A stretch of DNA of 64,000 bases from Candidatus Magasanikiibacteriota bacterium (GTDB taxonomy: Bacteria; Patescibacteriota; Patescibacteriia; Magasanikbacterales; UBA922): assembly GCA_021648085.1 (NCBI GenBank), contig JAKITS010000001.1, positions 541,671-605,670 of the forward strand. The letters are read 5' to 3'. How positions within the stretch are numbered: position 1 is the stretch's first letter; every line of letters begins with the position of its first letter. Under the pieces are notes generated by a model. The model was not told where the DNA came from, searched no databases, and saw nothing but the letters and a program-made list of their open reading frames with translations. Position numbers and translations under genes: made by a program. This document shows positions 19,783-41,660 of the stretch, in pieces.

Positions 19783-20145
19783 GTTCTAATTGTCCGAAAT
19801 TTCTAACCTCCCGAACATTTGAAATTTCCTGCTTGCGGGACAGGCTAATTAAACTAATTTATTATTACAAATTAACAATTAACAAAAATAATCTTACATC
19901 ATCCTGAGCGATAGTCGAAGGATCTCGAGATAAAATAACTAAAACATAAATAATTATAATAAAACATTAGCTCGTCTTTCTTTTTGTTCTTTGTTAATTG
20001 TTAGTTATTAATTAAACATCCTCTTAGTGACAAAAGATAAAGTGAGAACATTTTGATGTTATCGTTAAAAAAGAATATTTTTAAATCAATGTTTAAAGGA
20101 TTCCTGCTGGCAGGTAGGTCTCGCTTTGGTTCAACATGATAGAGA
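19783..20145 (+). repeat. Structured long intergenic repeat (SLR family), copy 1, carrying a nested REP unit and a long internal hairpin
   Basis: Shares 5-prime module TTCTAACCTCCCGAACATTTGAAATTTCCTGC, central GTGAGAACATTTTGATGTTATCG and 3-prime GCAGG...CTTTGGTTC with copies at 24286, 25015, 33309, 41427. The central ACCTTTTGG/CAAAAGGT hairpin of copy 41427 is replaced by AATTAACAATTAACAAA...TTTGTTAATTGTTAGTT. Confidence 0.7.
19897..19931 (-). repeat. REP-like unit nested inside SLR copy 1
   Basis: ACATCATCCTGAGCGATAGTCGAAGGATCTCGAGAT. Confidence 0.6.
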
Positions 20146-20188
20146 AGCCAATGTTTTAATATAAATTTATATTTTGTGATTTAAATTG

Positions 20189-20282
20189 GGGTATCCATTC
20201 GACTCCACTTCGTTTCGCTCAGGATGACGTGTGGGAAAGTGATACTATCTCGAGATCCTTCGGCTTCGCTCAGGATGACGTA
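20189..20282 (+). repeat. Two tandem REP-like units (long variant with CCAC insert, then short variant)
   Basis: GGGTATCCATTCGACTCCACTTCGTTTCGCTCAGGATGACGTG ... CTCGAGATCCTTCGGCTTCGCTCAGGATGACGT, immediately downstream (minus sense) of the phosphohexomutase gene. Confidence 0.65.
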
Positions 20283-20288
20283 AAAAAA

Positions 20289-21656
20289 TTAAGATAAAAA
20301 TACTTTCAACTCCTCAACCTTATCTTTAACTTCTTCTTTGTTTCTCGCCTCCAAATTCAATCTTAATACCGGCTCTGTGTTTGATTTTCGTAAACTAAGC
20401 CAACCCCAATCAAATCTCATCCACAACCCATCCAAATATGAAGTCTCCAAAGCAGAATCTTTAAAACTCTCTTCTACTTTTTTCATTACACCATCTTTAT
20501 CTTCTACTTCAAAATTTATCTCGTCTGAATGAACATATCTTTTGAATGGTTTTATCAATTCACTAAGTTTTTTACCTTCACGAGACATAATATGTAAAAA
20601 GTAAAGCAAAGATAAATCTGTAGATTCTAAATCATAAACATCACTATAATAAAGATGTAAGGATAACTCACCAGCAAAAACAGCTCCTGTTTTTTTCATT
20701 AGATCCTTAATTAGAGCATGACCTACCATACACATTTGAGTCTTTGCACCATTCTCCTCCCAAATTTCTTTTACAGATTGGCTTAGGCGCAAGTCATAAA
20801 GCATTACAGAATTTGGATGTTTCGCTAAAACTTCCAAACCAACCAAACCACCAACAAAAGATGCTGGTACCACTTCCCCGTTTTCATCCACCAAACCAAT
20901 CCTATCTGCATCACCATCAAAAGCAAAGCCAAAGTCCGCTCCAACTTCTACCACTTTTTTCTGTAAATCTTTTAATGTTTCTACTTTCAAAGGATTAGCC
21001 TCGTGATTTGGAAAAGTTCCATCTGGCTCCATATACATATACTCCACTTCTATTGGCAACTCTGCCAAAACTTTTGGAATAGAAACATCTGCCATCCCAT
21101 TTCCCCCATCCACCACAATTTTAAGTGGCTTAATACTTTCTTTTGGAACAAGTGAAAAAATTAAATTTTTATAATCTTCAAAAATACTTTTATCCTCTAC
21201 CCCTCCTTTTTCTTCCGCATCTTTAAATTCATAATTTAAAACTAAATCTTTTATTTCATCCATTCCAGTCACCTTTCCAACCGGCAAACCATTTTCTTGT
21301 GTAATTTTGAAACCATTGTATTCTGAAGGGTTATGACTTGCTGTCACCATAATTCCACCAACATGCTCCGAATAATGCGCGCATGCAAAGTTAAAAAGTG
21401 GTGTACTCGTTAGGCCAATTTTTACCACATCAATACCTTCGTAATTTATTCCTTTTATCACCGCATTTGCAAACTCTTCGCTTGTCTCACGCATATCTTT
21501 TCCAACCACTATTTTTTTACCAGAAAAATCTATATTTTTATTTTTCAAAAAAACGACAAAAGCTCTCCCAACCCTATACGCAAACTCGGCAGACAAATCA
21601 CCATTTACCAACCCACGAATATCATATGCTTTGAAAATTTTGTTATTGAACCTCAT
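20289..21656 (-). CDS. Phosphohexomutase (phosphoglucomutase/phosphomannomutase/GlmM family)
   Basis: 455 aa; active-site TASHNPSEYNGFK, Mg site DGDADR, sugar-binding GELSLH-like motif. Confidence 0.85.
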   Translation of the reverse strand: MRFNNKIFKAYDIRGLVNGDLSAEFAYRVGRAFVVFLKNKNIDFSGKKIVVGKDMRETSEEFANAVIKGINYEGIDVVKIGLTSTPLFNFACAHYSEHVGGIMVTASHNPSEYNGFKITQENGLPVGKVTGMDEIKDLVLNYEFKDAEEKGGVEDKSIFEDYKNLIFSLVPKESIKPLKIVVDGGNGMADVSIPKVLAELPIEVEYMYMEPDGTFPNHEANPLKVETLKDLQKKVVEVGADFGFAFDGDADRIGLVDENGEVVPASFVGGLVGLEVLAKHPNSVMLYDLRLSQSVKEIWEENGAKTQMCMVGHALIKDLMKKTGAVFAGELSLHLYYSDVYDLESTDLSLLYFLHIMSREGKKLSELIKPFKRYVHSDEINFEVEDKDGVMKKVEESFKDSALETSYLDGLWMRFDWGWLSLRKSNTEPVLRLNLEARNKEEVKDKVEELKVFLS

Positions 21657-21767
21657 ACTTCTAAATTTACTTGAATTATATAGTGAATTTTGTTATATTT
21701 TATATATAAATCTCTTAAAGACTATATTTTTAATATTAAACAATAACATTATTGTATCACACTTACT

Positions 21768-24281
21768 ATGATTGAATCTGAACAATTTTTGGAAAATCTG
21801 TCAACACACCTCCGAAACACGATTACTGGCGGATTGACTCTCGCCACCACTTTAAACCATTGTGAGGTTAGTCCAGCTCACCTTCTTTTTGCGCTTGCAG
21901 AAGAGAAAGGTTCTGTTGGGATAGAAATTCTCAAAAAATTAAAAGTTGATAAAAAATTAATTTTTAATCTTCTTTCCATAACTCCAAAAACAGAAAAAGA
22001 TAAAGAAACAAAAAAACCAAAAATTCCAGAACTAAGTGAGACAGCAAAAAGAGCTTTGGAAAAAGCAATGCTTTTGGCTTATGAAGAAGAGCATGTTTAT
22101 GTTGGCACAGAACACCTACTATTTGGACTTGTAAACTGTGAAGATGTAAATATTGAATCCATTCTAAAGCAAGCTGGAGTAAGTATTGAAACAGCTGAAG
22201 AACAAATTGATATAGTTTTGGAAAGTACAAACAAATTTCCAAATTTGGACGATGTAAAAAATACTTTAGAGCAAATTAGTCGTCTTGCAAATTCTAGAGA
22301 TTTTAATAAAAATAAAACAAAAAAAGGAAAAAATAAAAAAAGGAAAAATTCTATACTAGGAGAATTTACAACAGATCTTACTCATAAAAATTCTCAAAAA
22401 AATCTAGATCCTGTAGTTGGTCGCGAACAAGAAATAACTAGAATTATTCACATACTTTCTCGTAGAACAAAAAATAATCCGGTTTTAGTTGGAGAGCCTG
22501 GGGTTGGAAAAACAGCAATTATTGAAGGTCTTGCGAGACGAATTGCAGATGGAGATGTGCCATACAATTTGCGAGGTAAAAAATTACTCTCACTCGATCT
22601 TACACTATTAATTTCTGGAACAATTTACAGAGGAGAGTTTGAGGCAAGACTAAAACAGGTAATAGACGAAATTTCTGCAAATTCAAAATATATTCTTTTT
22701 ATAGATGAGCTCCACAATATAATAGGAACTGGCTCAAACCAAGGAACAATGGATGCAGCAAACATTTTAAAACCAGCACTCGCTCGCGGAAAATTGCGCT
22801 GTATCGGTGCTACCACATTAGATGAATACAAAAAATACATATCTACAGATCCTGCACTAGAACGCAGATTTCAATCTATAGAAATAGATGAGCCAAGTAT
22901 CGAGGAAGCTAAAACAATTCTACACGGAATAAAACCTCATTACGAAAAATTTCATGATGTGGACATTACAGACTCTGCGATAGAAAAAGCTGTGGAATTT
23001 TCAACAAGATTTATTCACGAAAACTTCCTACCAGACAAAGCAATAGACCTAATAGACGAGGCTTGTGCTTTTGTTCGCACAAAATTGAAAAATCCAATAG
23101 ACGAAAAAATTCATAATTTTAAAAAAGAACTTAGTGATTTGAAAGAAGAAAAAAGTAAAGCAATATCACAAGAAAAATTTAAACTTGCCGGAGAATTGAA
23201 AAAATCGGAAAAAGATATTAAAGTAAAAATTAAAAAACTAAAAAAACAAAAATTTAACAAAAAAACTGGAAATCTTCCAAAAGTTGAAGTTGGGCATATT
23301 GCAGAAGTTTTAAGCGCAAGATTAAATATAGAAAAAGAGAATTTACTTGCAGACGACTGGCAAAGAGTAGAAAAAACTTCAAAACAATTGAACCAACACA
23401 TAAAAGGACAGACTCATGTTGTAGAAGAAATAAAGCAAAAACTTAGTCAAAGTTATCTAGGACTTGGAAATAAAAACAAACCACTTGCGTCATTTTTGTT
23501 TGTGGGACCAAGCGGAGTTGGTAAAACTTACACAGCAAAAATACTTGCACAAACACTTTATAACAACAAAAAATCTCTTATCAAACTAGATATGAGTGAA
23601 TTTTCAGAATCACACAGCATTTCAAAAATCCTAGGCTCTCCTGCTGGATATGTTGGGCACGACAGTAGAAATAAATTTACAGAAGCTATCAAAAAAAGAC
23701 CTTATTCTGTAGTACTTTTCGATGAGTTTGACAAAGCTCATCCAGATGTTCGTAAACTACTACTTCAAATTTTGGACGAAGGAGAAATCACAGACAGCTC
23801 CGGAAAAAAAGTAAAATTCAATCATTCTATAATAATTCTAACTTCAAATGTGGGAGCAGAATTATACAAAAACACAGAAATTGGTTTTGGTAAAAATGTA
23901 TCTAAAACACTAGACGAAGAAAAAAGAAGACGAATTCACAATAAAGTAAAAAAATCTTTTGGTGGAGATGTTTTGAGTCGTTTAAATTCTGTTTGTATTT
24001 TCAACCAGCTAAGTCAAAAAAACATAGAGCAGATAATTGAAAAACAAATAATAGACATCAATAAAAAATTGCAAGATAAACGAAAAATAAATTTGGTAGT
24101 AAGTCGTGGTGCTTTAAAAGAATTAGCAAAAAATAAATATTCAGAAGATTTTGGAGCAAGAGATATTGAACGCAAAGTCACTCAGACAATTCAAGAATTA
24201 CTAATAAATGCTCTAAATAAAAAAACAGAACAGGATACATATTCACTACAAATCTCAGAAGGAAAATACGAACTTGTGTAA
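21768..24281 (+). CDS. clpC: ClpC-like AAA+ chaperone ATPase (two AAA modules, Clp_N repeats, IGF ClpP-docking tripeptide)
   Basis: 837 aa; Clp N-domain repeats, Walker A GEPGVGKT and GPSGVGKT, short middle domain, IGFG loop in AAA2. Confidence 0.88.
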   Translation: MIESEQFLENLSTHLRNTITGGLTLATTLNHCEVSPAHLLFALAEEKGSVGIEILKKLKVDKKLIFNLLSITPKTEKDKETKKPKIPELSETAKRALEKAMLLAYEEEHVYVGTEHLLFGLVNCEDVNIESILKQAGVSIETAEEQIDIVLESTNKFPNLDDVKNTLEQISRLANSRDFNKNKTKKGKNKKRKNSILGEFTTDLTHKNSQKNLDPVVGREQEITRIIHILSRRTKNNPVLVGEPGVGKTAIIEGLARRIADGDVPYNLRGKKLLSLDLTLLISGTIYRGEFEARLKQVIDEISANSKYILFIDELHNIIGTGSNQGTMDAANILKPALARGKLRCIGATTLDEYKKYISTDPALERRFQSIEIDEPSIEEAKTILHGIKPHYEKFHDVDITDSAIEKAVEFSTRFIHENFLPDKAIDLIDEACAFVRTKLKNPIDEKIHNFKKELSDLKEEKSKAISQEKFKLAGELKKSEKDIKVKIKKLKKQKFNKKTGNLPKVEVGHIAEVLSARLNIEKENLLADDWQRVEKTSKQLNQHIKGQTHVVEEIKQKLSQSYLGLGNKNKPLASFLFVGPSGVGKTYTAKILAQTLYNNKKSLIKLDMSEFSESHSISKILGSPAGYVGHDSRNKFTEAIKKRPYSVVLFDEFDKAHPDVRKLLLQILDEGEITDSSGKKVKFNHSIIILTSNVGAELYKNTEIGFGKNVSKTLDEEKRRRIHNKVKKSFGGDVLSRLNSVCIFNQLSQKNIEQIIEKQIIDINKKLQDKRKINLVVSRGALKELAKNKYSEDFGARDIERKVTQTIQELLINALNKKTEQDTYSLQISEGKYELV

Positions 24282-24285
24282 AAAA

Positions 24286-24545
24286 TTCTGTCCTTTTCTA
24301 ACTCCCAACCTCCTGAACATTTGAAATTTATGGACTAATTTTTTATAAATATTTATGGTTTTCTGAGAATACAGAAAATAACGAATTTAGCGAACTGCGG
24401 TGAGTTAAATAAATATTTAGAAAAAATTAAGCCATAAATTGTCAACCGTTCGGCACTTTTGGTTACCTTTTGGTGACAAAAGGTAAAGTGAGAAGGATTG
24501 GGTTTTAAATTTAAAGATTTTGTGAGTCGAAGATAAAATTTTTAA
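24286..24545 (+). repeat. SLR family copy A (long form), starts 5 bp after the clpC stop
   Basis: CCTCCTGAACATTTGAAATTTATGGACTAATTTTTTATAAATATTTATGG...GTTCGGCACTTTTGGTTACCTTTTGGTGACAAAAGGTAAAGTGAGAAGG; ends in a degenerate REP remnant GTGAGTCGAAGATAAAAT. Confidence 0.7.
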
Positions 24546-24621
24546 ATTAAACATTAGGATTACATAAAAAAAGTTTTTAATTATTATTTAAAATAATAAT
24601 TAAAAGTACTTCATAATTAGC

Positions 24622-24981
24622 TTGTCGGTTAAAATGGATAATACTTCACAAAATTGGGCAGTAGAACTGCAAAAACAAAAAACAAAACTCCAAAATAGTG
24701 GTGCTGATATTCAGGTTGAAAAAGAAAATAATGACTATGAGTTGAATAAAGTAAAAATAGATTTAATAAAATCCGCAGAAGAAAAAGATTTTAACAAAAT
24801 TGCAGAAAATTATAATAAATTGGTAGAGCTTTTTGCAAAAGAAACAGCCTTAAATCTACTAAATTTGGAAAAAAGATTTGGAACTGTAAATGAAATTGTG
24901 ATAAAAAACCAAGCGAAACTATTTACACAGGAATGTTTGGATGTAGCGCAAGCAGTTGATTCAATTTTAGATAGCAGCTAG
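24622..24981 (+). CDS. Hypothetical small protein (probable true start ATG at 24634), bracketed by SLR copies A and B
   Basis: 119-aa ORF (the track start is TTG); coiled-coil-like, no recognisable family. Confidence 0.45.
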   Translation: MSVKMDNTSQNWAVELQKQKTKLQNSGADIQVEKENNDYELNKVKIDLIKSAEEKDFNKIAENYNKLVELFAKETALNLLNLEKRFGTVNEIVIKNQAKLFTQECLDVAQAVDSILDSS

Positions 24982-25014
24982 ACTCCAGGCTTCCGACTTC
25001 AGTTTTTTATCATA

Positions 25015-25335
25015 TTGTTCTCTTCCTATCCTAAACCTCTCGAACATTTGAAATTTTTGGACTAATTTTTTATAAATATTTATGGTCCTTTTGAGAATAC
25101 AAAAGGATAGTGAGTGTAGCGAATTGCGGCGAGCCAAATAAATATTTATAAGAAATTAAGCCTAAAATTGTCATTAGTTCGGCGGTTTTAACTACCTTTT
25201 GGCAGCAAAAGGTAAGGTGAGAAAAACTTAGTTTTGAATTTAAATAAAAGTTTTACTCATATATCACGCTTAAGAGATTCTCGTCTGCCGGCGCGCAGGT
25301 CTCACTTTAGTTCGAAATGACAGAAAAAATAAATT
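25015..25335 (+). repeat. SLR family copy B (long form); its 3-prime module abuts the start of gene 25347
   Basis: About 85% identical to copy A over the shared 5-prime and central modules. 3-prime module CTGCCGGCGCGCAGGTCTCACTTTAGTTCGAAATGACAGAAA matches copy 41427. Confidence 0.7.
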
Positions 25336-25346
25336 AAACACAAAGT

Positions 25347-26405
25347 ATGGCAACTGCCGTAACAGCAGGACAACTTAAAAAAAGTGGGAGTCTTACGCGT
25401 TCTATTTTTGATAGTGGTGAATTTTTGCCAATTGTTGCTGTAGCTTTGAGGAGTATGGGTGCTGGTGGAGCAATTGCAGATGTGTTATCGAATATGAAAG
25501 GTTTTAGCATGAAAGATTTACTCGGAACAACAAAAACAATTGCAAAACAATATACTCCTGCGATGGCACAAAAAAAAATAATGAATGCTGGAAATAAAAT
25601 AAAGGATACTGGCAAAAAAATTAGTGATTCTGGAGCTTTCAAAGCCATAAAACAAAAAGCTGGTTTTGGAGACCACAGACCAAAACAAACAACTGATCCT
25701 GATTTTGCAACAGATGAACAACTTAGTCCAGAATTTGGAGGTGGAGACGAAAAAGAAGAAGAACAAGAAGAATCATCTTTTACAGAAGAACCGGATGAAA
25801 ATGAGGAAGATGAAGAAGATACTCCAGGAGAAAAACCATACCAGCCATTTTCTAAGCCAAAACCAGAAGAAGAAAAAGAAGAGCTAGACAAAAAAAAGAA
25901 AGAAAAACAAGAAAAAGAAAAAACTCCAAAAGAGAGCGATCAGGAAAGATCTAAAAAATTTCAACAAAGTAAAAACCAACAAAGATTAAGATCTAAAAAA
26001 GGAAATGGAAAAGAAGATGTTAAAAAGAGGAAAGGAGGAAAAGAAAAGAAGGAAAAGAAAGAGAAAGAAGGAAAAAAAGAATTTACAAATATAGAATTAA
26101 TAGTTTGGCTACCTTGTGCTATTGCAGCAGACATAGCATCTATTATTCCTTATGTTGGATTAGTTATTAGCTGGCCTTTTGGTATATCCTTTTTTATATT
26201 TAAATGGGTAAAAAAATTTAATAAATCTACCACAGTAATGGTTAGTGGTTTAGATGTAATTTTAGAAGGCTTTTTCTCTACTATTCCAGCGAATACAGCC
26301 GATGTGCTTATAACTTATTCTATTTCAAAAGCTAAAAAATATGGAGTTAAAATCCCTGATGCAGAAAAAAAACTAAAAAAAGTTACAGGCGCAAAACCAA
26401 AATAA
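25347..26405 (+). CDS. Hypothetical membrane protein with basic N-domain, highly acidic then lysine-rich low-complexity linker, and two C-terminal TM helices
   Basis: 352 aa; EEEQEESSFTEEPDENEEDEED followed by KKKEKQEKEK...KEKKEKKEKEGKK, then hydrophobic IELIVWLPCAIAADIASIIPYVGLVISWPFGISFFIF. First gene of a same-strand cluster. Confidence 0.6.
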   Translation: MATAVTAGQLKKSGSLTRSIFDSGEFLPIVAVALRSMGAGGAIADVLSNMKGFSMKDLLGTTKTIAKQYTPAMAQKKIMNAGNKIKDTGKKISDSGAFKAIKQKAGFGDHRPKQTTDPDFATDEQLSPEFGGGDEKEEEQEESSFTEEPDENEEDEEDTPGEKPYQPFSKPKPEEEKEELDKKKKEKQEKEKTPKESDQERSKKFQQSKNQQRLRSKKGNGKEDVKKRKGGKEKKEKKEKEGKKEFTNIELIVWLPCAIAADIASIIPYVGLVISWPFGISFFIFKWVKKFNKSTTVMVSGLDVILEGFFSTIPANTADVLITYSISKAKKYGVKIPDAEKKLKKVTGAKPK

Positions 26406-26471
26406 TAAAATTTAAAAAATAAGACTAAAGAGTGTGTTATAATTTAATTACTACATATCACAAATAAAAAT

Positions 26472-27689
26472 ATGGACAAAAAGCGTATAATTTTCATAGC
26501 GATATTTTCAGTAGCTGTAATAGGAATAGGATATCTTATGTATTCTATTTTTTGGAAATCTTCTGAACCAACAATAATACCACCAGATAAAACTGTCACC
26601 GATACCACAAAATTACCGTCTGGAGGATCTTTTGCACAAAGCGATGACAAGGAAATAAATGACACAACCACACCTGAAGTTGGAGGTGCAATAGTAATAA
26701 GACCTACAGAATTGCCAGATTCTGGAATAAGAGAGGTTACAAGAGTTGTTGCAGAAAATCTCATAAACCCAAAGATAAACTCAAATGGCGATGTAAATTT
26801 TTATAATACAATAGACGGAAAATTTTACACTTCACAAAATGGAGAAACAGTAGAAATGAGTGAACAAGTATTTTTTAATGTAGAAAATGTCGTATGGTCT
26901 GGAGTAAACAACGAATCCATCATCGAATATCCGGACGGCTCAAATATTTACTATAACTTTGATACAGAAGTACAAAGAACACTTCCAAAACATTGGGAAG
27001 ACTTTTCTTTTTCCAAACAAGGTGACCAAATAGTTGCAAAAAGTATAGGAATTTCACCAGAAAATAGATGGCTCGTGAGTAGCGATGCTGATGGAAATAA
27101 TGTAACTTTAATAGAATCACTCGGAGAAAATGCTGATAAAGTAACCGTAGACTGGTCACCAAACAAACAAATAATAGGAGTAAGTTTAGCTGGTGGAGTC
27201 GCAGGTGCAAACAGACAAGAAGTATTTTTTGTTGGTCAAAATGGAGAAAATTTTAAATCCATGATTGTAGAAGGAAGAGGTTTTGAATCTATTTGGTCGC
27301 CAAGTGGAGATAAGCTTTTATACAGTGTTTACAGTACACGAAGCCAGTACAAACCAGAATTATGGGTAGTGAGTAGTAAGGTTGGTAATATAGGCTCAAA
27401 CAGAAAAATGCTCGGCATAAATACTTGGGCAGACAAATGTGCATTTGGAGACGAAAGAAACCTTTACTGTGCAGTTCCAAACAACCTTCCAGTTGGTAGT
27501 GGTTTTAGTTCAGATTTAGCAAACACTGCCACATACACATTGATAAGAATAGATACACAAACAACACTTCAAACACCACTCCAAATGGATGAAATCCACA
27601 GCATCGACAAAATATTTTTATCCAATGATGGTGGTACGCTTTATTTTACAGACAAATTTGAATCAGGTTTATTTAGTATTTCAATATGA
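26472..27689 (+). CDS. Membrane-anchored TolB-like / PD40-type beta-propeller protein
   Basis: 405 aa; N-terminal TM helix; repeated WSPxxxxI/L blades (VDWSPNKQIIGVSL, IWSPSGDKLLYSV). Confidence 0.7.
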   Translation: MDKKRIIFIAIFSVAVIGIGYLMYSIFWKSSEPTIIPPDKTVTDTTKLPSGGSFAQSDDKEINDTTTPEVGGAIVIRPTELPDSGIREVTRVVAENLINPKINSNGDVNFYNTIDGKFYTSQNGETVEMSEQVFFNVENVVWSGVNNESIIEYPDGSNIYYNFDTEVQRTLPKHWEDFSFSKQGDQIVAKSIGISPENRWLVSSDADGNNVTLIESLGENADKVTVDWSPNKQIIGVSLAGGVAGANRQEVFFVGQNGENFKSMIVEGRGFESIWSPSGDKLLYSVYSTRSQYKPELWVVSSKVGNIGSNRKMLGINTWADKCAFGDERNLYCAVPNNLPVGSGFSSDLANTATYTLIRIDTQTTLQTPLQMDEIHSIDKIFLSNDGGTLYFTDKFESGLFSISI

Positions 27690-28309
27690 TAAAAACTAGA
27701 CATCTTTTTTTAGTTTTCATTCCAGCAATTGCTGTAGTTTCTTTTGCTTTATTTGTGCGAATAGTGCAATACGAACCAGTTTATGACAGAAATAAACCGC
27801 TAGACATTCCTCGACAAATGGCACAACTTTTCCCAGAAGATCCAATTTTAGGAAATAAGAAATCCCCAATTACATTAGTTGCTTTTGAAGATTTTAGCTG
27901 TCCTGCTTGCAGCACCCAATCAAAAATGCTAGATGATATATTGCTACAATACCCAAACAGTATAAAAATTATTTGGAAAAGTATAAGTACACATAAAAGT
28001 GAATTGGCAAATAATTATGCATATTGTGCAAACAAACAAAGAAAGTTTGCTGAATTCAAAAATCTTGCTTTTGCAAATCAAAACAATTTAAATATAGATA
28101 TTTTAAATATAATTTCTGAAACAATAGAATTAAACGAAACTAAATTAAACAAATGTTTAGCTTCTGGCGAAGCTGAAATTTATAATCAAAAAAATAGAGA
28201 CTTGGCAACTATTTTGCATGTGCAAGCTGTACCAACTTTTTTCTTGAACGATGTGCAACTTCAAACACCAAAATCTAGAGATGAATGGAAAAATGTTTTA
28301 GGACTATAA
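27686..28309 (+). CDS. DsbA-like thiol:disulfide oxidoreductase (thioredoxin fold, CPAC active site), membrane-anchored
   Basis: 207 aa; N-terminal TM helix; FEDFSCPACSTQ CxxC motif; start overlaps the upstream stop (ATGA). Confidence 0.75.
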   Translation: MIKTRHLFLVFIPAIAVVSFALFVRIVQYEPVYDRNKPLDIPRQMAQLFPEDPILGNKKSPITLVAFEDFSCPACSTQSKMLDDILLQYPNSIKIIWKSISTHKSELANNYAYCANKQRKFAEFKNLAFANQNNLNIDILNIISETIELNETKLNKCLASGEAEIYNQKNRDLATILHVQAVPTFFLNDVQLQTPKSRDEWKNVLGL

Positions 28310-31841: not shown

Positions 31842-33281
31842 TTATTTCACATCAATCAAATCATGTGCACCACTTTCTCTCAATCCTGCGTTTGTGACTC
31901 TTACAAATTCTGCGTTATTTTGTAGCTCACCCACAGTTCTAGAATTTGTATAGCTCATTCCAGAGCGAAGTCCGCCAACAAGCTGACCAATTATATCTCC
32001 CACAGGACCTTTGAATGGTACGACAGCTTCCACTCCTTCTGGTACCACATCGCCCAATTTTTTACTTTCCTGATTCACTTTTTTTCTTCTTTGTGCCACC
32101 GCAAAACTCGCGCTTCCTCGACAAACTTTGAACTTCTTCCCTGCTCTAGACATTACAACTCCAGGGCTTTCTTTTGTACCTGCCAGCATTCCACCAAGCA
32201 TCACAGTGTCTGCTCCAGCTCCAAGTGCTTTTACTATATCCCCAGATTTTTGGATTCCACCATCTGCAATTACCGGCACACCATATTCTTTGGCAACTCT
32301 GGCGCATTCTGCCACAGCGGTAAACTGCGGAACTCCACAACCAGCCACAAGACGAGTAATACAAATAGTTCCTGGGCCAACACCAACCTTAATTCCATCT
32401 ACTCCTGCTTCACACAATTCTCGTGCACCTTTAGCGCTCGCTGTATTTCCTGCAATTATCTGAACATCACCAAACTGCTCGCGCAATTTACGAACTGCAC
32501 TAAACATCAATTCAGAATGACCATGTGCAATATCTACCACCAAAACATCAACACCCACATTTATCAAAGCACTCGCTCTTTCAAGGTAATCTCCGTGAAC
32601 ACCAATAGAACCACCCACAATCAACCTACCTTTTTTGTCCACATTTGCATAAGGATAATCAATCAAATTTTTTATATCACAACTTGTAATCAACCCAACG
32701 ATAGAATTATTCATATCTACCAACGGCAACTTCTCCACTCTGTGTTGAGCTAGTAATCTTTTTGCTTCATTTAGATTTGTAGATGCATCCCCTACCACAA
32801 GTCTATCTCGAGGTGTCATCACGTCTCGCACAAGCAAACCATCATCTTCTGCAAACAAAATATCGCGCTTGGACAAAACACCCAAAAGTCGTCCATCGCC
32901 ATTTGAGACAAGAAGTCCTGTCACACCATTGTTCGCCATAACCTGTTTTGCAATACTTACTGTCTTATTTGGATCAATAGTATAAGGCTCATAAATTACA
33001 AAATTCTGTGCACGTTTTACCCTTTTTACCTCTTCTGCATTTTCTTCTATCGTCATAAACCTATGTAAAATTCCAATTCCACCAAGCCGTGCCATGCTTA
33101 TAGCCATCTCGGACTCAGTCACAGTATCCATATTTGAACTTATTATCGGTGCACTCAGTGAGATTTGTTTTGTAAGCCAAGTTGAGGTGTCAGCTTCACT
33201 TCTAGATCTCATAGAAGATCTCTGCGGAACAATCAAGACATCATCATAAGTTAATGCGATCGGAATATTGTTTACATCCAT
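31842..33281 (-). CDS. guaB: Inosine-5-prime-monophosphate dehydrogenase
   Basis: 479 aa; TIM barrel with tandem CBS insert; catalytic loop VGVGPGTICITR. Confidence 0.95.
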   Translation of the reverse strand: MDVNNIPIALTYDDVLIVPQRSSMRSRSEADTSTWLTKQISLSAPIISSNMDTVTESEMAISMARLGGIGILHRFMTIEENAEEVKRVKRAQNFVIYEPYTIDPNKTVSIAKQVMANNGVTGLLVSNGDGRLLGVLSKRDILFAEDDGLLVRDVMTPRDRLVVGDASTNLNEAKRLLAQHRVEKLPLVDMNNSIVGLITSCDIKNLIDYPYANVDKKGRLIVGGSIGVHGDYLERASALINVGVDVLVVDIAHGHSELMFSAVRKLREQFGDVQIIAGNTASAKGARELCEAGVDGIKVGVGPGTICITRLVAGCGVPQFTAVAECARVAKEYGVPVIADGGIQKSGDIVKALGAGADTVMLGGMLAGTKESPGVVMSRAGKKFKVCRGSASFAVAQRRKKVNQESKKLGDVVPEGVEAVVPFKGPVGDIIGQLVGGLRSGMSYTNSRTVGELQNNAEFVRVTNAGLRESGAHDLIDVK

Positions 33282-33308
33282 ATGGTTTAATTTAAAATAT
33301 TTTTATTT

Positions 33309-33456
33309 TTTTAACCTCCAGAACATTTGAAATTTCCTGCATGCCAGACAGGAGATTATCATTGGTTCAGCACTTTTAGTTATCTTTTAATGTCAAAAGG
33401 TAAGGTTAGAACATTTTTATGTTATCGTCAAAAAAGAATGTTTAGATGAAATAAAG
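33309..33456 (+). repeat. SLR family copy (short form) fused to a REP unit
   Basis: TTAACCTCCAGAACATTTGAAATTTCCTGCATGCCAGACAGGAG...GGTTCAGCACTTTTAGTTATCTTTTAATGTCAAAAGGTAAGGTTAGAACATTTTTATGTTATCG. Confidence 0.65.
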
Positions 33457-33489
33457 ACGAGATCCTTCGACTTCGCTCAGGATGACGTG
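33457..33489 (+). repeat. REP-like unit (short variant)
   Basis: CGAGATCCTTCGACTTCGCTCAGGATGACGTG followed by AAAATACTCAC, as in the 13043 copy. Confidence 0.65.
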
Positions 33490-33496
33490 AAAATAC

Positions 33497-35566: not shown

Positions 35567-35766
35567 AAGATTTATTGTTAAATAATTTTTTGATGAAAAT
35601 TTTTATATTTCGAGCGAAACGAAGATAAAAATTATGAGGTATTGCCATAGCACTATTGAATAATTTTTATCAAGTTATAGCCGAAATATAGAAATTTTGG
35701 CGAAAAATTATCCAACAATAGATCTGTCGCTTATATATTTTAACATCTGCAAAAAATTTTACAAAT

Positions 35767-35794
35767 AAAAAAACCAGTATTTCTACTGGTTTTA
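35767..35794. terminator. Terminator hairpin AAAAAAACCAGTATTTCTACTGGTTTT (family copy)
   Basis: Identical palindrome to 13643 and 37458 copies; just downstream of ORF 35792-36139. Confidence 0.6.
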
Positions 35795-36139
35795 AACCTT
35801 GTTAGACAAAGATTTAAAAAATATTTTACTATTTTTAATAACATAAATAAAAGATTTAAAAAATATCTTTTTAGTAAAAGAGTTATTCAAAAAATAAATA
35901 TCAACAAACAAAACAGACATACAAAAAACAAAAAAGAAAGAAGCTGGAATATAAGTATTAATTACATTAGATATATAATAAAATCTTGAATTAAGTAAAC
36001 ATAACTCATAAAAATAAGTATTAACATTAAAAATAGGTAATAATAAATAAACTAAAGATAACACTCCAAACAAAATCCCACTTTTAACTACCATTTTTCT
36101 ATGTAATCTTTCACTAATTAATAAAAAAGATTTTTCCAC
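35792..36139 (-). CDS. Small polytopic membrane protein (GTG start)
   Basis: 115 aa; 3-4 TM helices; GGAGG Shine-Dalgarno 7 nt upstream of GTG. Confidence 0.5.
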   Translation of the reverse strand: MEKSFLLISERLHRKMVVKSGILFGVLSLVYLLLPIFNVNTYFYELCLLNSRFYYISNVINTYIPASFFFVFCMSVLFVDIYFLNNSFTKKIFFKSFIYVIKNSKIFFKSLSNKV

Positions 36140-36250
36140 TCTTACCTCCTTTTTGTAATTTTATAAATTGTAAAGAACTTTAAATAAATCTACCATTTTA
36201 TTCCAATTTTGTCAACAAAAAAAACCAGTATTCTTACTAATTTATTTATT
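36140..36250 (-). promoter_or_regulatory. Duplicated ~100-bp promoter/leader module (copy 1), about 80% identical to 37381-37490, including TTGACA, TACAAT-like box, AAAGGAGG RBS, GTG start and an upstream family terminator hairpin
   Basis: Minus-strand ...TTGACAAAATTGGAATAAAATGGTAGATTTATTTAAAGTTCTTTACAATTTATAAAATTACAAAAAGGAGGTAAGAGTG matches the 37381-37490 copy. Confidence 0.5.
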
Positions 36251-36252
36251 AT

Positions 36253-37380
36253 TTAAACACTAAACTCTTCTAATTCAACATCAACCAATTCTTCTAAAAC
36301 AGAGCCTAATTCATCCAACCCTAATCCTTCAGAAAAATCAGAAACAGTTAATGCCAGTTTAATATCAACTTGTCTTACAATATCTTCACTTTCTTGGCGT
36401 ATCTTTTCTAATTCACCTGCTATTTCTCCTGACATTTTTTCCAATATTTTATCAACTTCATCACTAATTTCTTGAATATCTCCAACCAACTTTCGTACAT
36501 CTTCCATAATTTTCAAATCTGGCAAAGTAGTTTGCTGAAAAACCTCTAAAGATACTCTTGTTTTACTAATATACTCTTCTTTGTCAATTTTAAAACCTCT
36601 TAAAATAACCTGCTCTCTTAAAAGATGTTCATTATATTTATTAACCGCATAAATAGCCAAATTTATATGTTTAGGAATCTTTCTGTTTAAGCGTTGGTAT
36701 TCATTTTTCCGCACCGAAAGAACTTCATTCAAACGAACAACCTCACTTAAATTAAACTCAATTCTTTTATATTGTTTTTGATAGTCGCTATCATTACCAA
36801 ACAAATCACTCTCTAACTCATTAAGTCTTTTTTTATTATGCTCAATAGCAAAATCATAATAATTTTTATCAAACTCATCTTTAAATTTATTTGGATTAAA
36901 TGATACCGCACAAAAAACTCCATTTGGTTTAAATTCTTTATATTCAAAATTATTTTCACATGACACATGTACAAACTTTTGTATATTTTCTTTGTTATAA
37001 AAGTTTAACAAAATAAAAAAAATAAAAACCAACAAAACAAAAGATAAGACAAAAGATAAAATACTTTGAAAAATTACAAGAAAAATAGGTAGATAAAAAC
37101 AAAAAAAAGGAATTATAGATAAAATCAATATCTTATTTCTAATATCATTTTTGTTTAAAATTAAAAACATATTATTTTTTTTAGATTGTTTTTCTATTTT
37201 TTTTAATATTTCCAATCTTTGATTTTCTTGTCTTACTATTTTTAATTCATAAGAAGCTTTTTCTTCTTTTACTTGATCTTCATATTTCTTTTTTGCCTTT
37301 TCAAACTCTTCATCATAAATATTACGGCGTATAGATACAAAATCTAACCACAATCTTTTTTTTAATGTATCGATTTTCAC
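36253..37380 (-). CDS. Hypothetical membrane protein with central TM hairpin and coiled-coil flanks (GTG start)
   Basis: 375 aa; hydrophobic ILILSIIPFFCFYLPIFLVIFQSILSFVLSFVLLVFIFFILLNF. Confidence 0.55.
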   Translation of the reverse strand: MKIDTLKKRLWLDFVSIRRNIYDEEFEKAKKKYEDQVKEEKASYELKIVRQENQRLEILKKIEKQSKKNNMFLILNKNDIRNKILILSIIPFFCFYLPIFLVIFQSILSFVLSFVLLVFIFFILLNFYNKENIQKFVHVSCENNFEYKEFKPNGVFCAVSFNPNKFKDEFDKNYYDFAIEHNKKRLNELESDLFGNDSDYQKQYKRIEFNLSEVVRLNEVLSVRKNEYQRLNRKIPKHINLAIYAVNKYNEHLLREQVILRGFKIDKEEYISKTRVSLEVFQQTTLPDLKIMEDVRKLVGDIQEISDEVDKILEKMSGEIAGELEKIRQESEDIVRQVDIKLALTVSDFSEGLGLDELGSVLEELVDVELEEFSV

Positions 37381-37490
37381 TGTGCACCTCCTTTTTGCAG
37401 TTTCATAAATTGTAAAGAACTTTAAATAAACTTATCATTTTTTCTAGATTTTGTCAACAAAAAAACCAGTATTTCTACTAGTTTTTTGTC
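37381..37490 (-). promoter_or_regulatory. Duplicated promoter/leader module (copy 2) with family terminator hairpin AAAAAAACCAGTATTTCTACTAGTTTTTT at 37458-37487
   Basis: See copy 1; drives ORF 36253-37380. Confidence 0.5.
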
Positions 37491-37541
37491 TCTTACTCAA
37501 TCTGCCTAATCTGCTTATTTCTTATATTTTCTATTCTATTG

Positions 37542-37613
37542 TGCTCTCGGCAGGAATCGAACCTACATCCCCAGTTCCGCAAACTAGTGTCCTATCCGTT
37601 GAACGACGAGAGC
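37542..37613 (-). tRNA. tRNA-Arg (anticodon GCG; anticodon parse less certain than the tRNA call)
   Basis: GCTCTCG-TC-GTTC-AACGGATA-GGAC-A-CTAGT-TTGCGGA-ACTGG-GGAT-GTAGG-TTCGATT-CCTGC-CGAGAGC-A; U33, G37, 4-nt variable loop. Confidence 0.7.
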
Positions 37614-37880
37614 AAATTATATCTGGAACAGTCCAATTATACCTCAAAACCATGACAAAGTCAACCATAAGAACCTATTCAACATCTTTTTCCTATTTAA
37701 TCTCACTCTATTTTGACTACAAATTTTATAAACAAGTTCGGTATAAAAATATTATTCCTTACTTTTTTATAAAATTTTCGCTCAAAATATAATAAAACTG
37801 ACTTAGAAAAAAGATATTAAATATGTTCTAGAAACAAAAAATACAAGTTTCCTTGTGTTTTTTGTTTAGTGTTTTTAAAA

Positions 37881-37922
37881 CGAGATCCGTTCGACTCCAC
37901 TTCGTTTTGCTCAGGATGACGT
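37881..37922 (+). repeat. REP-like unit (long variant)
   Basis: CGAGATCCGTTCGACTCCACTTCGTTTTGCTCAGGATGACGTG. Confidence 0.65.
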
Positions 37923-37974
37923 GAATATTTTTTCTTTTTTAGTTTAAACTACTTACTCTTCCTATTTTACTGTT

Positions 37975-38478
37975 TTACAAAAGTCTCCAGTTTCTAGCCA
38001 ACCTATCGGACAAAGGTTCTTCTTTTTCTATATCTTCTGCCAAATACTGACTCAAGATTTGTTTTATCTCCAGTGGATTTTCATCTAAAAGTGGAATTCT
38101 TAAAATTGGACGCAATGCACTTTCTGTTTCTATAAACAAAGTCTTCACATCTTCCAAAGGGTTGTAAACAATAAAAAATTCTGTCAACTCTGAGTATGAA
38201 TAAAATCTTGTACCAAGAATAATACCCAACTCTGAAATTTTAAACTCAATTTGTGGAGCCTGTTGGTGAGCCTGAAGAAACAAAATAATAGAAAATAAAA
38301 TAATAATCAAAGAAAAAAGAAAATTACCCGTAATAACACCGACGACAACCATTCCTAAACCAGATGAAATAATTAAAATAAACCAAAGCCTGCTCCTGCT
38401 TTGTTGCTCGTATTCTTGGATAGTCCACTCTTGGTGAATATCTCCCAATAAAGTTTTTCCTGTTATTTGTTCTGGCAT
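37975..38478 (-). CDS. Hypothetical membrane protein (two N-terminal TM helices plus a soluble domain)
   Basis: 167-aa intact ORF. Confidence 0.5.
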   Translation of the reverse strand: MPEQITGKTLLGDIHQEWTIQEYEQQSRSRLWFILIISSGLGMVVVGVITGNFLFSLIIILFSIILFLQAHQQAPQIEFKISELGIILGTRFYSYSELTEFFIVYNPLEDVKTLFIETESALRPILRIPLLDENPLEIKQILSQYLAEDIEKEEPLSDRLARNWRLL

Positions 38479-38567
38479 ATAAAGACATTATACAACAAAA
38501 CAATAAAATAATAAAATACAGAGCTAAATATTGCCAAACACCATTTTTTCCCATATAATAAGCTTAT

Positions 38568-40004
38568 ATGCAGAGAACTGACATTAATTTTGTTTTACAA
38601 GGAGAGGATCAAGAGTCAAATCAACAAGAACCTGGCAAAAAACGTTCCAAGTTTTTTTTATTTTTGATTGTTTTTGTATTACTACTTTTGGGTGGCTATA
38701 CAGCACGCGCAATAACTTCAAACAGCTCAAACAATCCAGACGATTATGATCCTATAACACTAGAGCCTGTTCGACCTGAAGGAATCTTTCAAAGACTAAA
38801 ATATTTTGTATTTAACAAAGAGGTAAAACTAGAAGGGGAAAAAGATGACAGAATAAACATCCTGCTTTTGGGTATGGGAGGTTTAGGACACGACGGACCA
38901 TTTCTTACAGACACTATTATTATTGCAAGTATAAAACCATCCACAGGAGAAGTTGCAATGATTTCAATACCTAGGGATTTGGGAGTATATATAAAAGGTG
39001 AAGGTTGGTGGAAGATAAACCACGCAAACCACTTTGGAGAAAAACAAAAATCTAACCAAGGCGGAGCTTTTGCAACAGAAGTTATTTCTGACACTTTCAA
39101 CATAGATATTCCATATTATATTCGAGTAGACTTTAAAGCTTTTGAAAAGATTGTAGATGATGTTGGAGGCGTAAATGTCTTCGTTGAAAATGCTTTCAAA
39201 GATAGTCAATATCCAGCAGAAGACGATTTATATAAAACAATTTCATTTGCTCAAGGTGAACAAGAAATGAACGGAGAAACTGCACTTGAATATTCAAGAT
39301 CTAGACACGGAAACAACGGCGAAGGATCAGATTTTGCTAGAGCAAGAAGACAACAACAAGTTATACTAGCTTTAAAAGAAAAAGTATTTTCTTTTTCTAC
39401 ACTCGCGAACCCACTCAAAATTTACAACATTATAAAAACATTAGACAGACATATCACCACAAACATGGAGTTTGCTGATATCGTAACATTTATGAAAGTT
39501 ATAAAAGAAGATTTGGACACAAAAAATATAAAAACTTTTGTGTTAGACAATAGCCCAAACGGATACTTAAAAAATATAGTCGGCGCAAACGGTGCTTATA
39601 TGCTTCAGCCAAAAACTGGAGATTTCGGTGAAATAAATTATCTAATTGCAAATATTTTTGAAGCTCAGCCACAAAAACCACAAATAGTAGCAGAGCAAAA
39701 TTCACCAAAATATTACAGCGATGCTAAAATAGAAATACAAAATGGAACTTGGATAGCAGGAATGGCAGCAAGACTAGAAAACAAATTAGAAAAGAAAGGT
39801 TTTGATGTCGGTGAACTTGGAAATACTGCAGAGAGACCACAACAATTAAGTGGTATATATATAATAGGATCTGACCAAAAAACAGATACAGCAAAGGCGT
39901 TAAAAGAAGAACTAGGAATATCCATAAGAAAACTACCAAATAACTTGACTTTTACCTCCAGTAGTGATATTCTTATCATCTTAGGAACAGACTTTGAATT
40001 ATAG
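38568..40004 (+). CDS. LytR-CpsA-Psr (LCP) family cell-envelope phosphotransferase with C-terminal LytR_C-like domain
   Basis: 478 aa; N-terminal TM; LCP core INILLLGMGG...DTIIIASIKPSTGEVAMISIPRDL. Confidence 0.85.
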   Translation: MQRTDINFVLQGEDQESNQQEPGKKRSKFFLFLIVFVLLLLGGYTARAITSNSSNNPDDYDPITLEPVRPEGIFQRLKYFVFNKEVKLEGEKDDRINILLLGMGGLGHDGPFLTDTIIIASIKPSTGEVAMISIPRDLGVYIKGEGWWKINHANHFGEKQKSNQGGAFATEVISDTFNIDIPYYIRVDFKAFEKIVDDVGGVNVFVENAFKDSQYPAEDDLYKTISFAQGEQEMNGETALEYSRSRHGNNGEGSDFARARRQQQVILALKEKVFSFSTLANPLKIYNIIKTLDRHITTNMEFADIVTFMKVIKEDLDTKNIKTFVLDNSPNGYLKNIVGANGAYMLQPKTGDFGEINYLIANIFEAQPQKPQIVAEQNSPKYYSDAKIEIQNGTWIAGMAARLENKLEKKGFDVGELGNTAERPQQLSGIYIIGSDQKTDTAKALKEELGISIRKLPNNLTFTSSSDILIILGTDFEL

Positions 40005-40009
40005 AAAAT

Positions 40010-41410
40010 ATGCCAACACCCGCACAAATTATAGACGAACAATTACCAACCATTGCCCTTGTTGGTCGTGTTAATGTTGGTAAATCTACTCTTTTCAATA
40101 AACTAATAGAACAAGAAAAAGCACTTGTATCCAAAATTCCAGGAACAACAAGAACTAGAAATGAAGGGGAAATGCTTTGGCGCGGACAAAGAATTAAACT
40201 TGTAGATACTGGTGGTCTAACTTTTACAGATGATGTTTTACTAGAAGAAGAAATAATTGAACAATCTGAAAAAGCATTAAAAGAAGCTGATGTGATACTT
40301 TTTATTACAGACGCACACACAGGAATTTTGCCACAAGAAAAAGAATTGGCAAAACTACTTTTAAGAAATTACAAAGACAAGCCAATAATGCTTTTGGCAA
40401 ACAAGGTAGACAGCACAAAAATAGAAAGAGATTTAAGAGCTGACAAAGACTGGTTTAAACTTGGTTTTGGTGCTCCATTCCCTGTTTCTGCTGTAAGTGG
40501 TAGAAATGTTGGAGACTTTTTAGATAAACTTTACAACATACTAGACGCAATAGACATAAAACCAAAAGATTATAATGAAATAGAAAATATTATAAATATT
40601 TCTGTTATAGGAAAACCAAATGTTGGAAAATCTTCACTTTTCAATAAAATTATCGGGGAAGACAAGGTAATTATAAGTGATATGGCACATACAACCCGTG
40701 AACCATTTGACACACTTGTCACATACACACAAAAAGTAGGAGACGAAGACAAAATATACAACTTAAATTTTATAGATACAGCAGGAATTCGTAGAAAAGC
40801 AAGGGTAAAAGGATTTTTAGAAAGAAAAGGTATTATAAAAAGTATAGATTATATAGATAAATCAGACCTAGTTTTATTTGTACTAGACGGCTCTGAACCC
40901 ATATCTTCCCAAGATAGACAACTAGGTGGACTCTTAGAAAGAAGAGCAAAAAGTGTTATTATAATAGTAAATAAGTGGGATCTTGCAGAAGACAATAGCC
41001 AAACAAATCAAATCAATGTAAAGAAAATGGTTTATTCTCACTTTCCTCACCTAAATTTTGCACCTATTGTTTTTACAAGTGGTTTGAGTGGAGAGAAAAC
41101 TCACAAACTCTTTCCAGAACTTATCAAAATTTGGGACGCAAGACACACCTTCATATCAAGAGGTGCTCTAAAAGTATTTATTGAAAGTGTGACGAGACAA
41201 CACAAACCATCTCGCGGAAAAGGAACAAGACAGCCAAAGATTTTAGGTTTCAGACAAATAGCCGAAAATCCTCCTGTTTTTGAGCTTGCTATAAAACACA
41301 AGACCTCACTACACCGTTCTTATATGAACTTTATAGAAAACAGACTTCGTGAACAATTTAATTTTATTGGAACACCCATTATAATTAAATTGCGTAAAGC
41401 AAAAATGTAA
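40010..41410 (+). CDS. der: Ribosome-biogenesis GTPase Der (EngA)
   Basis: 466 aa; tandem G domains (GRVNVGKSTLFN, GKPNVGKSSLFN) and C-terminal KH-like domain. Confidence 0.95.
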   Translation: MPTPAQIIDEQLPTIALVGRVNVGKSTLFNKLIEQEKALVSKIPGTTRTRNEGEMLWRGQRIKLVDTGGLTFTDDVLLEEEIIEQSEKALKEADVILFITDAHTGILPQEKELAKLLLRNYKDKPIMLLANKVDSTKIERDLRADKDWFKLGFGAPFPVSAVSGRNVGDFLDKLYNILDAIDIKPKDYNEIENIINISVIGKPNVGKSSLFNKIIGEDKVIISDMAHTTREPFDTLVTYTQKVGDEDKIYNLNFIDTAGIRRKARVKGFLERKGIIKSIDYIDKSDLVLFVLDGSEPISSQDRQLGGLLERRAKSVIIIVNKWDLAEDNSQTNQINVKKMVYSHFPHLNFAPIVFTSGLSGEKTHKLFPELIKIWDARHTFISRGALKVFIESVTRQHKPSRGKGTRQPKILGFRQIAENPPVFELAIKHKTSLHRSYMNFIENRLREQFNFIGTPIIIKLRKAKM

Positions 41411-41426
41411 TTGAACATATGATAAA

Positions 41427-41660
41427 TTTCTGTTCTTTTCTAAATTTCTAACCTCCAGAATATTTGAAATTTCCCGCTAGCAGACAGGGAATTATCATTA
41501 GTTCGGCACTTTTGATTACCTTTTGGTGTCAAAAGGTAAAGTGAGAACATTTTGATGTTATCGCTAAAAGAGAATGTTTTTAAATCAATGTTTAAGGGAT
41601 TCCCGCCTGCCGGCAGGTAAGCCCCACTTTGGTTCGAAATGACAGAAAGGAAATAAATAT
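41427..41660 (+). repeat. SLR family copy (canonical medium form) between der and pth
   Basis: TTTCTGTTCTTTTCTAAATTTCTAACCTCCAGAATATTTGAAATTTCCCGCTAGCAGACAGGG...TTACCTTTTGGTGTCAAAAGGTAAAGTGAGAACATTTTGATGTTATCG...CCTGCCGGCAGG...TTTGGTTCGAAATGACAGAAAGG. Confidence 0.7.

Follow-up and report, generated by a model that had tools for sequence, protein, structure and literature searches.

What are the hairpin-rich repeats that recur between the genes of a 64,000-nucleotide (nt) stretch of contig JAKITS010000001.1, part of a Candidatus Magasanikbacteria metagenome-assembled genome (MAG) from the candidate phyla radiation (CPR, or Patescibacteria)? An original prediction, made from the letters of this stretch, described five copies of a modular intergenic repeat family, here called SLR. 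It left open whether the family was a miniature inverted-repeat transposable element (MITE), a remnant of an IS200/IS605 element retaining an RNA scaffold, a group of small RNAs, or a recombination site. We analyzed the whole stretch (the window, 64 kb) together with related loci from other genomes. The results favor, at a probability of roughly 0.6, a non-autonomous, non-coding mosaic insertion repeat similar in kind to MITEs, bacterial interspersed mosaic elements (BIMEs) and BOX elements, low in copy number and confined to one Candidatus Magasanikbacteria lineage. The window has 32.7% G+C and carries the housekeeping genes for phosphoglucomutase and IMPDH as well as clpC, recG, radA, der, pth, dprA and parAB.

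The five copies proved to be homologous, and their positions agree with those first proposed either exactly or to within a few bases. The 23-nt 5' block of the family, AACCTCNNGAAYATTTGAAATTT, has five matches in the window against 0.01 expected, and matches to the central and 3' blocks are likewise far above chance. No sixth copy was found in the 64 kb with nhmmer (--max) and three module models. The copies are 148-368 nt long (n=5), and neither they nor the further copies in the loci L001, L013, L014, L015 and L019 contain an open reading frame (ORF) with Pfam support. They had been described as lying in either orientation; this holds only relative to the genes, to which c2, c3 and c5 are sense and c1 and c4 antisense, while all five lie on the plus strand. 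Each copy is built from the 5' block, two hairpins termed P1 and P2 and a variable 3' part, and the tip of P1 comes in two forms, A and B. The copies, with the DNA that adjoins c2, are as follows.

19783-20150, plus strand: c1, type A with the 3' block; decayed, with a foreign element nested in it; between a tRNA-Ala gene and the phosphoglucomutase gene, both on the minus strand, and antisense to both.
24286-24545, plus strand: c2, type B; 5' block, long P1 hairpin and P2 present, 3' tail variant, 3' block absent; just 3' of the clpC stop codon, sense to its neighbors.
24546-24609, no strand assigned: remainder of the inserted block at the c2 site, with an AT-only palindrome, TTTTTAATTATTATTT/AAATAATAATTAAAA; missing from the empty site of the relative L018.
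25015-25335, plus strand: c3, type B with the 3' block; between a gene of 119 amino acids (aa) and one of 352 aa, sense to both.
33300-33443, plus strand: c4, type A, ending after the post-P2 hairpin, where a repetitive extragenic palindromic (REP) unit starts; between the start of the IMPDH gene and the stop of recG, both on the minus strand, and antisense to both.
41427-41655, plus strand: c5, type A and more complete than the other copies of this type; in sense orientation between der and pth.

A complete SLR unit, as represented by c5, is about 230 nt long and extends from a left terminus, TTTCTGT...ATTTCTAACC, to a right terminus, GGTTCGAAATGACAGAAA. Its parts are, in order, the left terminus TTTCTGT, the 5' block, P1, P2, a post-P2 hairpin, a GC palindrome and the right terminus ACAGAAA. 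Reading the two ends directly shows the right one to be an inverted copy of the left (TTTCTGT...ACAGAAA, or TTCTGTC...GACAGAA, and ATTTCTAACC/GGTTCGAAAT), and the predicted fold of c5 pairs them. This terminal inverted repeat is 7-10 nt long and imperfect; it is evident in c5 and fainter in c1 and c3. P1 is a long hairpin whose 5' strand is the invariant block CCNGAACATTTGAAATTT (CCNGAAC...TGAAATTT) and whose partner strand, AAATT.TCA...GTTCGG, is common to both subtypes. Its tip in type A (c1, c4 and c5) is a short GC hairpin, CCTGC...CAGG, that follows the 5' block; in type B (c2 and c3) it is a hairpin of about 115 nt, GGACTAATTT...AAATTAAGCC, with a sub-hairpin CCTTTTG/CAAAAGG. The second hairpin, P2 (TTACCTTTTG/CAAAAGGTAA), has one or two further hairpins on its 3' side. 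Two alternative tails follow P2; type A has GAGAACATTTTGATGTTATCG..., and the majority of type B copies have GAGAAGGATTGG...TGAATCA. The 3' block consists of the GC palindrome followed by CTTTGGTTCGAAATGACAGAAA.

The modular build that had been proposed, with parts present or absent copy by copy, is borne out, with two tips, two post-P2 tails and a 3' block in some copies. The core of the 5' module is present in all five copies and begins AACCTC (c3 reads AACCTCT); its supposed leading segment, TTCTAACCTCC, occurs in c1 and c5 only. The central module is complete in c2 through c5, and c1 keeps just its 3' half. The central hairpin, ACCTTTTG/CAAAAGGT, said to be perfect, is so in c2, c3 and c5 and imperfect in c4. 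The 3' module is found in c1, c3 and c5 and not in c2 or c4.

Comparison with other genomes indicates how these copies came to their sites. Loci were collected by scanning Genome Taxonomy Database (GTDB) genomes and Joint Genome Institute (JGI) metagenomes with the 23-nt 5' block, and further loci were obtained by protein-homologue look-ups. Gene order around clpC is the same in the relative L018 and in the window; the ClpC of L018 is 86% identical to that of the window in protein, 82% in nucleotide sequence and 64% at third codon positions. Two SLR sites are empty in L018. The spacer from clpC to the next gene is 35 nt long, as opposed to 340 nt in the window by the same ORF-to-ORF count, and the next two genes, separated in the window by 365 nt that include c3, are 1 nt apart. 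The flank at the L018 empty site, CATAATTAGCTTGTCG...ATGGATAATACT, is conserved right to the edge of the insert. A composite transposon made of c2, c3 and the gene between them is ruled out by the same comparison, in that L018 has that gene without either copy. At the c5 site, the der-pth spacer of three relatives with about 65% Der identity is 31-87 nt long versus 281 nt in the window, and c5 is missing from L016, L017 and two JGI relatives. It is present in L015, a locus with 84% Der identity that holds the 5' block of c5 at the same site (43 of 55 nt identical); the L015 contig ends inside this block, as is expected of assemblies, which break at repeats. About 38 kb of syntenic DNA from L016, L017 and L018, searched with three module profiles at maximum sensitivity, contained no SLR copy at all.

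Several of these loci differ from the window in other ways as well. At 4301-4553 of L018, two conserved genes that are only 66 nt apart in the window (26406-26471) are separated by an insert of about 250 nt whose inverted arms are long (ctaagagcct.ttca.aatcttttttctg...); this insert is a different, lineage-specific hairpin element. The IMPDH gene and c4 (window 31842-33496) sit between radA and recG only in the lineage of the window. In L016 and L017 radA and recG are adjacent and convergent, and two other relatives hold different small genes there; the radA-recG spacer is a hotspot of gene turnover.

Outside the window genome, further SLR copies were found in only a few contigs of uncultured bacteria among the collections scanned. 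The scans with the 23-nt block gave three true loci, L001, L013 and L014; the other matches were chance or coding matches, most commonly to a coding DnaX motif, LEEPPE(H/Y)LKF. Two more loci with copies came from the protein homologues.

L001 (CAZHUL010000089.1): 3.4-kb contig, 31.6% G+C, from a MAG labelled Gammaproteobacteria; a type B copy between glycosyltransferase genes.
L013, a JGI contig: two type B copies, one of them rearranged, both on one strand.
L014, a JGI contig: a type B copy.
L015, found via protein homologues: the 5' part of the c5 copy at the same der-pth site.
L019, found via protein homologues: two copies flanking pilB.

The label of L001 notwithstanding, its base composition and its repeats (SLR and CGTC-tagged REP units) suggest that it is a mis-binned CPR contig. 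The genes beside the copies in these loci are housekeeping genes (pilB, glycosyltransferase, HIT, thrS, dnaB and recR). Counting the window and the other loci together, all ten SLR sites lie between co-directional genes, with five copies sense and five antisense to them. A phage or plasmid origin found no support, since two pattern scans of viral contigs returned no matches and blastn against phage and plasmid collections returned none either. A second, loosely built repeat was noticed in two of these loci: in L015 about 180 nt of GAAGCGAT..CATCA units fill the space between lytR and der (2096-2276), where the window has 5 nt (40005-40009), and the same motif lies just to the left of the SLR copy in L001 (2120-2180).

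The L019 copy upstream of pilB and the L001 copy lie at different loci and come from different samples; they are 93.9% identical over 179 ungapped nt, including the same nested REP dimer. L013, at the same pilB site as L019 (PilB 97% identical as protein), has a different SLR variant and lacks the dimer. The core of c2 is 92% identical to the copies of L001 and L014 as compared with 78% to c3, its neighbor in the window. Because of the empty sites, the differences at der-pth, the near-identity of the L019 and L001 copies and the closeness of c2 to foreign copies, we conclude that SLR copies have been gained, replaced and remodelled on short evolutionary time scales.

SLR copies are themselves targets of insertion, c1 among them.

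19855-20008, no strand assigned: nested 154-nt element in c1, with terminal inverted repeats at 19855-19891 and 19978-20014 and a REP unit at 19897-19912.

This element is flanked by exact 9-nt direct repeats, TAATTAAAC, at 19846-19854 and 20009-20017, and about 110 nt of it recur at 12946-13056 of the window, upstream of a gene that starts at 12914. The longer hairpin of c1, AATTAACAATTAACAAA/TTTGTTAATTGTTAGTT, had been taken as a compensatory, structure-preserving replacement of the central hairpin. That view is excluded: the inverted repeat belongs to the terminal inverted repeats (30-37 nt) of the separate nested insertion, which carries the 9-nt duplication. Taking out the nested element and one direct repeat does not restore the core of c1, in which about 19 nt, GTTCGG and the 5' arm of P2 among them, are missing. 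With an insert nested in it and these 19 nt gone, c1 is a decayed and interrupted copy, and nested insertions in SLR copies show that the copies are dispensable.

The second class of nested sequence is the REP unit. Its motif, TTCGCTCAGGATGACG, has seven matches in the window against 0.12 expected; the reverse complement reads CGTC-ATCCTGAGCG...AGGAT (CGTCATCCTGAGCGAA...).

33451-33489, no strand assigned: a REP-like unit with a CGTC tag (reverse complement CGTCATCCTGAGCGAAGTCGAAGGATCTCGTC), immediately next to the truncated 3' end of c4.
20193-20282, no strand assigned: a pair of REP-like units with CGTC tags (20193-20231 and 20244-20282), just beyond the 3' end of c1.
13040-13078, 13088-13103, 19897-19912 and 37885-37923: the other REP units of the window.

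REP units abut the truncated 3' ends of c4 and of both L013 copies (L013a and L013b), and are nested in c1, L001 and L019; they were probably involved in the truncations. At the tip of the type B hairpin of L001 (about 2000-2070) and L019 (about 50-125), two REP units in inverted arrangement make up a dimer, and one of these units reads TGTC, ATTCCCGA, a 5-nt loop CCTGA, TCGGGAAT and CCA. The REP unit beside the orthologous SLR copies of L013 and L019 is identical at 36 of 36 positions, though synonymous sites of these loci are only about 84% identical. In the published CGTC-tagged REPs the tag may be TGTC, the stem has 8-9 bp and starts with AT, the loop has 4-5 nt and the tail is CCA (PMC3733652). 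The dimer units of L001 and L019 fit this description, and the window units begin with CGTC followed by AT; their loops, however, are at least 12 nt long rather than the published 4-5 nt. SLR itself is distinct from these REPs, its hairpins being much longer and without a GTAG or CGTC tag. Mosaic intergenic regions in which such REPs are interleaved among other repeats have been described (Di Nocera et al. 2013, PMC3733652).

We return to the nature of SLR. Among the options raised originally, the MITE fits best, given the empty c2 and c3 sites, the lack of c5 in distant relatives, the near-identical copies at unrelated loci and the short inverted termini. SLR copies would insert into the short gaps that separate co-directional genes, sense or antisense to them, and transposition would be the route of copying, with the mobilizing enzyme presumably encoded elsewhere in the genome. 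Once inserted, copies would not be maintained as functional genes; they decay or are truncated, and they receive nested CGTC-type REP dimers and another inverted-repeat element. Exchange of segments between copies would also take place and yield the module-by-module mosaic. The hairpins of the sense copies inside operons (c2, c3 and c5) would be part of the mRNA and might alter its processing or stability as a side effect. This reading requires no new mechanism.

SLR resembles known MITEs such as Correia/NEMIS of Neisseria, RUP of Streptococcus pneumoniae and Nezha of cyanobacteria in being small, non-coding, intergenic and present in several copies, with short inverted termini, long hairpins, presence or absence between close relatives and possible co-transcription with neighboring genes. 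It differs from them in having no clear target-site duplication, inverted termini of only 7-10 imperfect nt and no known cognate transposase, and in its low apparent copy number, the age of its copies and a body made of a series of hairpins rather than one long inverted repeat. With BOX elements of S. pneumoniae (boxA-boxB-boxC), the BIMEs of Escherichia coli and the dRS3/Correia mosaics of Neisseria it shares a modular, intergenic, hairpin-rich design interleaved with REP-type palindromes. Its module sequences are probably unrelated to those of BOX and BIME, and the likeness is architectural only. SLR modules are not tandemly reiterated in the manner of boxB, and the REP units are separate insertions rather than a building block.

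A number of observations weigh against an insertion repeat of this kind. The copies within the window genome are only 62-80% identical to one another; they are old, and there has been no recent burst there. No unambiguous target-site duplication accompanies them: the empty and filled c2 sites share at most an A-run, and inspection of c1, c3 and c5 revealed no common flanking direct repeat. The terminal inverted repeat, short and imperfect as it is, is confined to copies with the 3' block. No transposase, TnpA, TnpB or IscB gene, for which the original prediction had proposed a search, was identified among the unannotated ORFs of the window near the copies or in about 70 kb of related loci (including L001, L013, L014, L016 and L018). 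The location of all copies within 22 kb and on one strand, each pattern with p of about 0.05-0.06 by simple arithmetic, is only marginally non-random; the GC skew tracks gene orientation and so gives no replication direction against which to judge a strand bias. The 23-nt 5' block is also strongly conserved, with the exact pattern in eight of the ten copies that retain it (the seven copies of alignment A2, drawn from three or more sources, are among these) and 37 of 40 positions (92%) identical between the orthologous L013 and L019 copies. Lastly, P1 and the type B stem contain double changes and an excess of G.U pairs, set out below, which hint at selection on a folded single strand, something that a classical DDE-type MITE does not need.

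The last two points lead to the principal rival, in which the SLR copies encode structured non-coding RNAs that serve the cell, whether as small RNAs acting in trans or as mRNA elements acting in cis. Its functional parts would be the hairpins together with the invariant, single-stranded 5' block, whose AACCUCC is similar to an anti-Shine-Dalgarno sequence, and function instead of mobility would determine how many copies there are and where they lie. The original suggestion of small RNAs has in its favor that the hairpins are kept, with a few compensatory changes. In P1 and P2, 95.7% of alignment cells are paired, versus 36-58% once the partner strand is shifted by 1-3 columns, and their covariation score exceeds that of all 500 shuffles; yet 19 of the 33 pairs never vary and just three change on both sides. 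The compensatory pairs number three in P1 and seven in the type B stem, the latter among four sequences. Single-sided changes on the plus strand produce G.U more often than A.C (six versus three in P1 and P2, about five versus two in the type B stem, 11 versus 5 in total), but this asymmetry is not significant and so does not settle which strand folds. The fold z-score of c3 is -4.6, as against only -1.6 for c5 on the plus strand. Signals expected of an RNA gene are missing, in that no promoter or terminator consensus is common to the copies on either strand and neither a conserved sigma-70 promoter nor an intrinsic terminator is present within the copies or next to them. Manual inspection of the minus strand of type B revealed a -35-like TTGACA without a conserved -10, and other parts of the window, such as the DNA upstream of the tRNA genes, do show canonical TTGACA/TATAAT sigma-70 promoters. 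A scan of 19500-42000 with Rfam 15 at E<=5 gave nothing on any SLR copy, and at the gathering threshold Rfam reported four tRNAs only, none of them on a copy. The evolutionary record of the copies also argues against an RNA gene: half of them are antisense to local transcription, c2 and c3 are missing from the close relative L018, and copies are truncated, interrupted or swapped between near-identical strains. Moreover, the body of the orthologous L013 and L019 copies is 85% identical, which is near the 83.6% seen at third codon positions of pilB and therefore implies little constraint, the body changing at about the synonymous rate. A role of AACCUCC as an anti-Shine-Dalgarno sequence is weakened by c3, L015 and L019, which lack an intact CCUCC, and by the distance of 30-47 nt that separates GGAGG, on the opposite strand, from the closest start codons. 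On balance we consider an RNA family rather unlikely. It is distinctly unlikely, too, that SLR combines both properties, as a mobile element whose fold functions as RNA, be it a guide, bridge or omega-type scaffold for an unlinked CPR recombinase or nuclease, or a set of trans-acting RNAs that expose AACCUCC...GAACAUUUGAAAUUU; if so, the compensatory changes and the G.U excess would be due to selection on RNA and not to mere inheritance of palindromes.

A related proposal, carried over from the original prediction, is that SLR is a palindrome-associated transposable element (PATE) of the IS200/IS605 type, or an IscB/TnpB derivative, that moves as single-stranded DNA and keeps an omega-RNA or reRNA scaffold for an unlinked nuclease. 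Such elements resemble SLR in being non-coding and rich in hairpins, without an evident target duplication and with one orientation within a region. The strand-asymmetric pairing, with the same tolerance of G.T (11 versus 5), the seamless empty sites (a 1-nt spacer at the c3 site), the shared strand of the five window copies and of both L013 copies, and the adjacent REPs, of a class linked to tyrosine transposases, would all agree with it. On the other hand, neither HEARO, IS605-orfB nor any other Rfam model matches the copies at E<=5, and the bases 5' of the left ends (AAAA, TAAA, GATG, CTTG and CATA) vary from copy to copy, as seen among c1, c2, c3, c5 and L001, so that there is no target tetranucleotide. 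The termini of SLR are inverted repeats, unlike the ends of IS200/IS605, no guide-like variable segment is evident at either end, and the ORF search described above included Y1 transposase, with no such gene found. We consider this origin highly unlikely. In sum, the evidence favors neither the functional structured RNA, which is the main rival, nor the PATE or omega-RNA derivative. Still other explanations have been considered for the arrangement within the window. SLR could act at the DNA level, as a recombination site or as a platform bound by, for instance, a nucleoid, segregation or recombinase protein, and be clustered here because parAB is nearby, given five copies on one strand in 22 kb at 6-28 kb from parAB (47.5-49.3 kb), an invariant 23-nt block and the palindromic sub-motifs ATTTGAAAT, AACATTTTGATGTT and TTCGAA. 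We judge this extremely unlikely: reading of the copies gave no match to the parS or DnaA-box consensus, foreign copies lie beside unrelated genes (pilB, glycosyltransferase and HIT), L018 lacks c2 and c3 despite the same gene order, and the clustering is marginal. Local segmental duplication of a single intergenic region, giving copies with neither mobility nor function, would account for their direct orientation and for their clustering. It is scarcely credible, however, as the flanks are unrelated and only the element is repeated, homologues exist at other loci in other organisms, c2 is nearer to foreign copies than to c3, and the boundaries of the empty sites are clean.

Proteobacteria, Firmicutes and cyanobacteria are well known to harbor small mosaic insertion repeats. 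For the reduced genomes of CPR/Patescibacteria, usually regarded as streamlined, our literature search turned up no account of them. With SLR as an insertion repeat, a genome of about 1 Mb tolerates several selfish intergenic layers, namely SLR, the CGTC-type REPs and another inverted-repeat element, and even operon junctions are affected, one of them having grown from 1 nt to 365 nt. The repeats also have practical consequences. They break short-read assemblies of this lineage, as seen in L015 and L019, both of which end inside copies; they may cause binning errors, as in L001; and their sites are polymorphic markers for strain tracking. If the fold should prove to be a functional RNA the family would be of greater interest, but nothing found here requires that reading.

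Other palindromes and repeats were also noted in the window. An AT-rich imperfect palindrome, CCCCACAATTGC...GAGTTGTGGGG, lies at 19542-19638, between an ORF of 134 aa and the tRNA-Ala gene; models of microRNA precursors match it weakly in either direction (E 0.09-1.6), and we take this to reflect just a long hairpin. A terminator-like hairpin, AAAAAAACCAGTATTTCTACTGGTTTTTTT, occurs at least four times in near-identical form, at 9399-9440, 13642-13683, 35755-35793 and 37447-37485, and its flanking A-run and T-run suggest that it could act in both directions. Finally, two genes on the minus strand are each preceded by a copy of an 80-nt repeat (36144-36223 and 37386-37465, 86% identical). Read along that strand, the repeat has the form of a canonical promoter (TTGACA, 17 nt, and TAGATT preceded by TG) followed by a 5' leader that ends in AAAGGAGGT; by these features it is a putative duplicated promoter-leader cassette.

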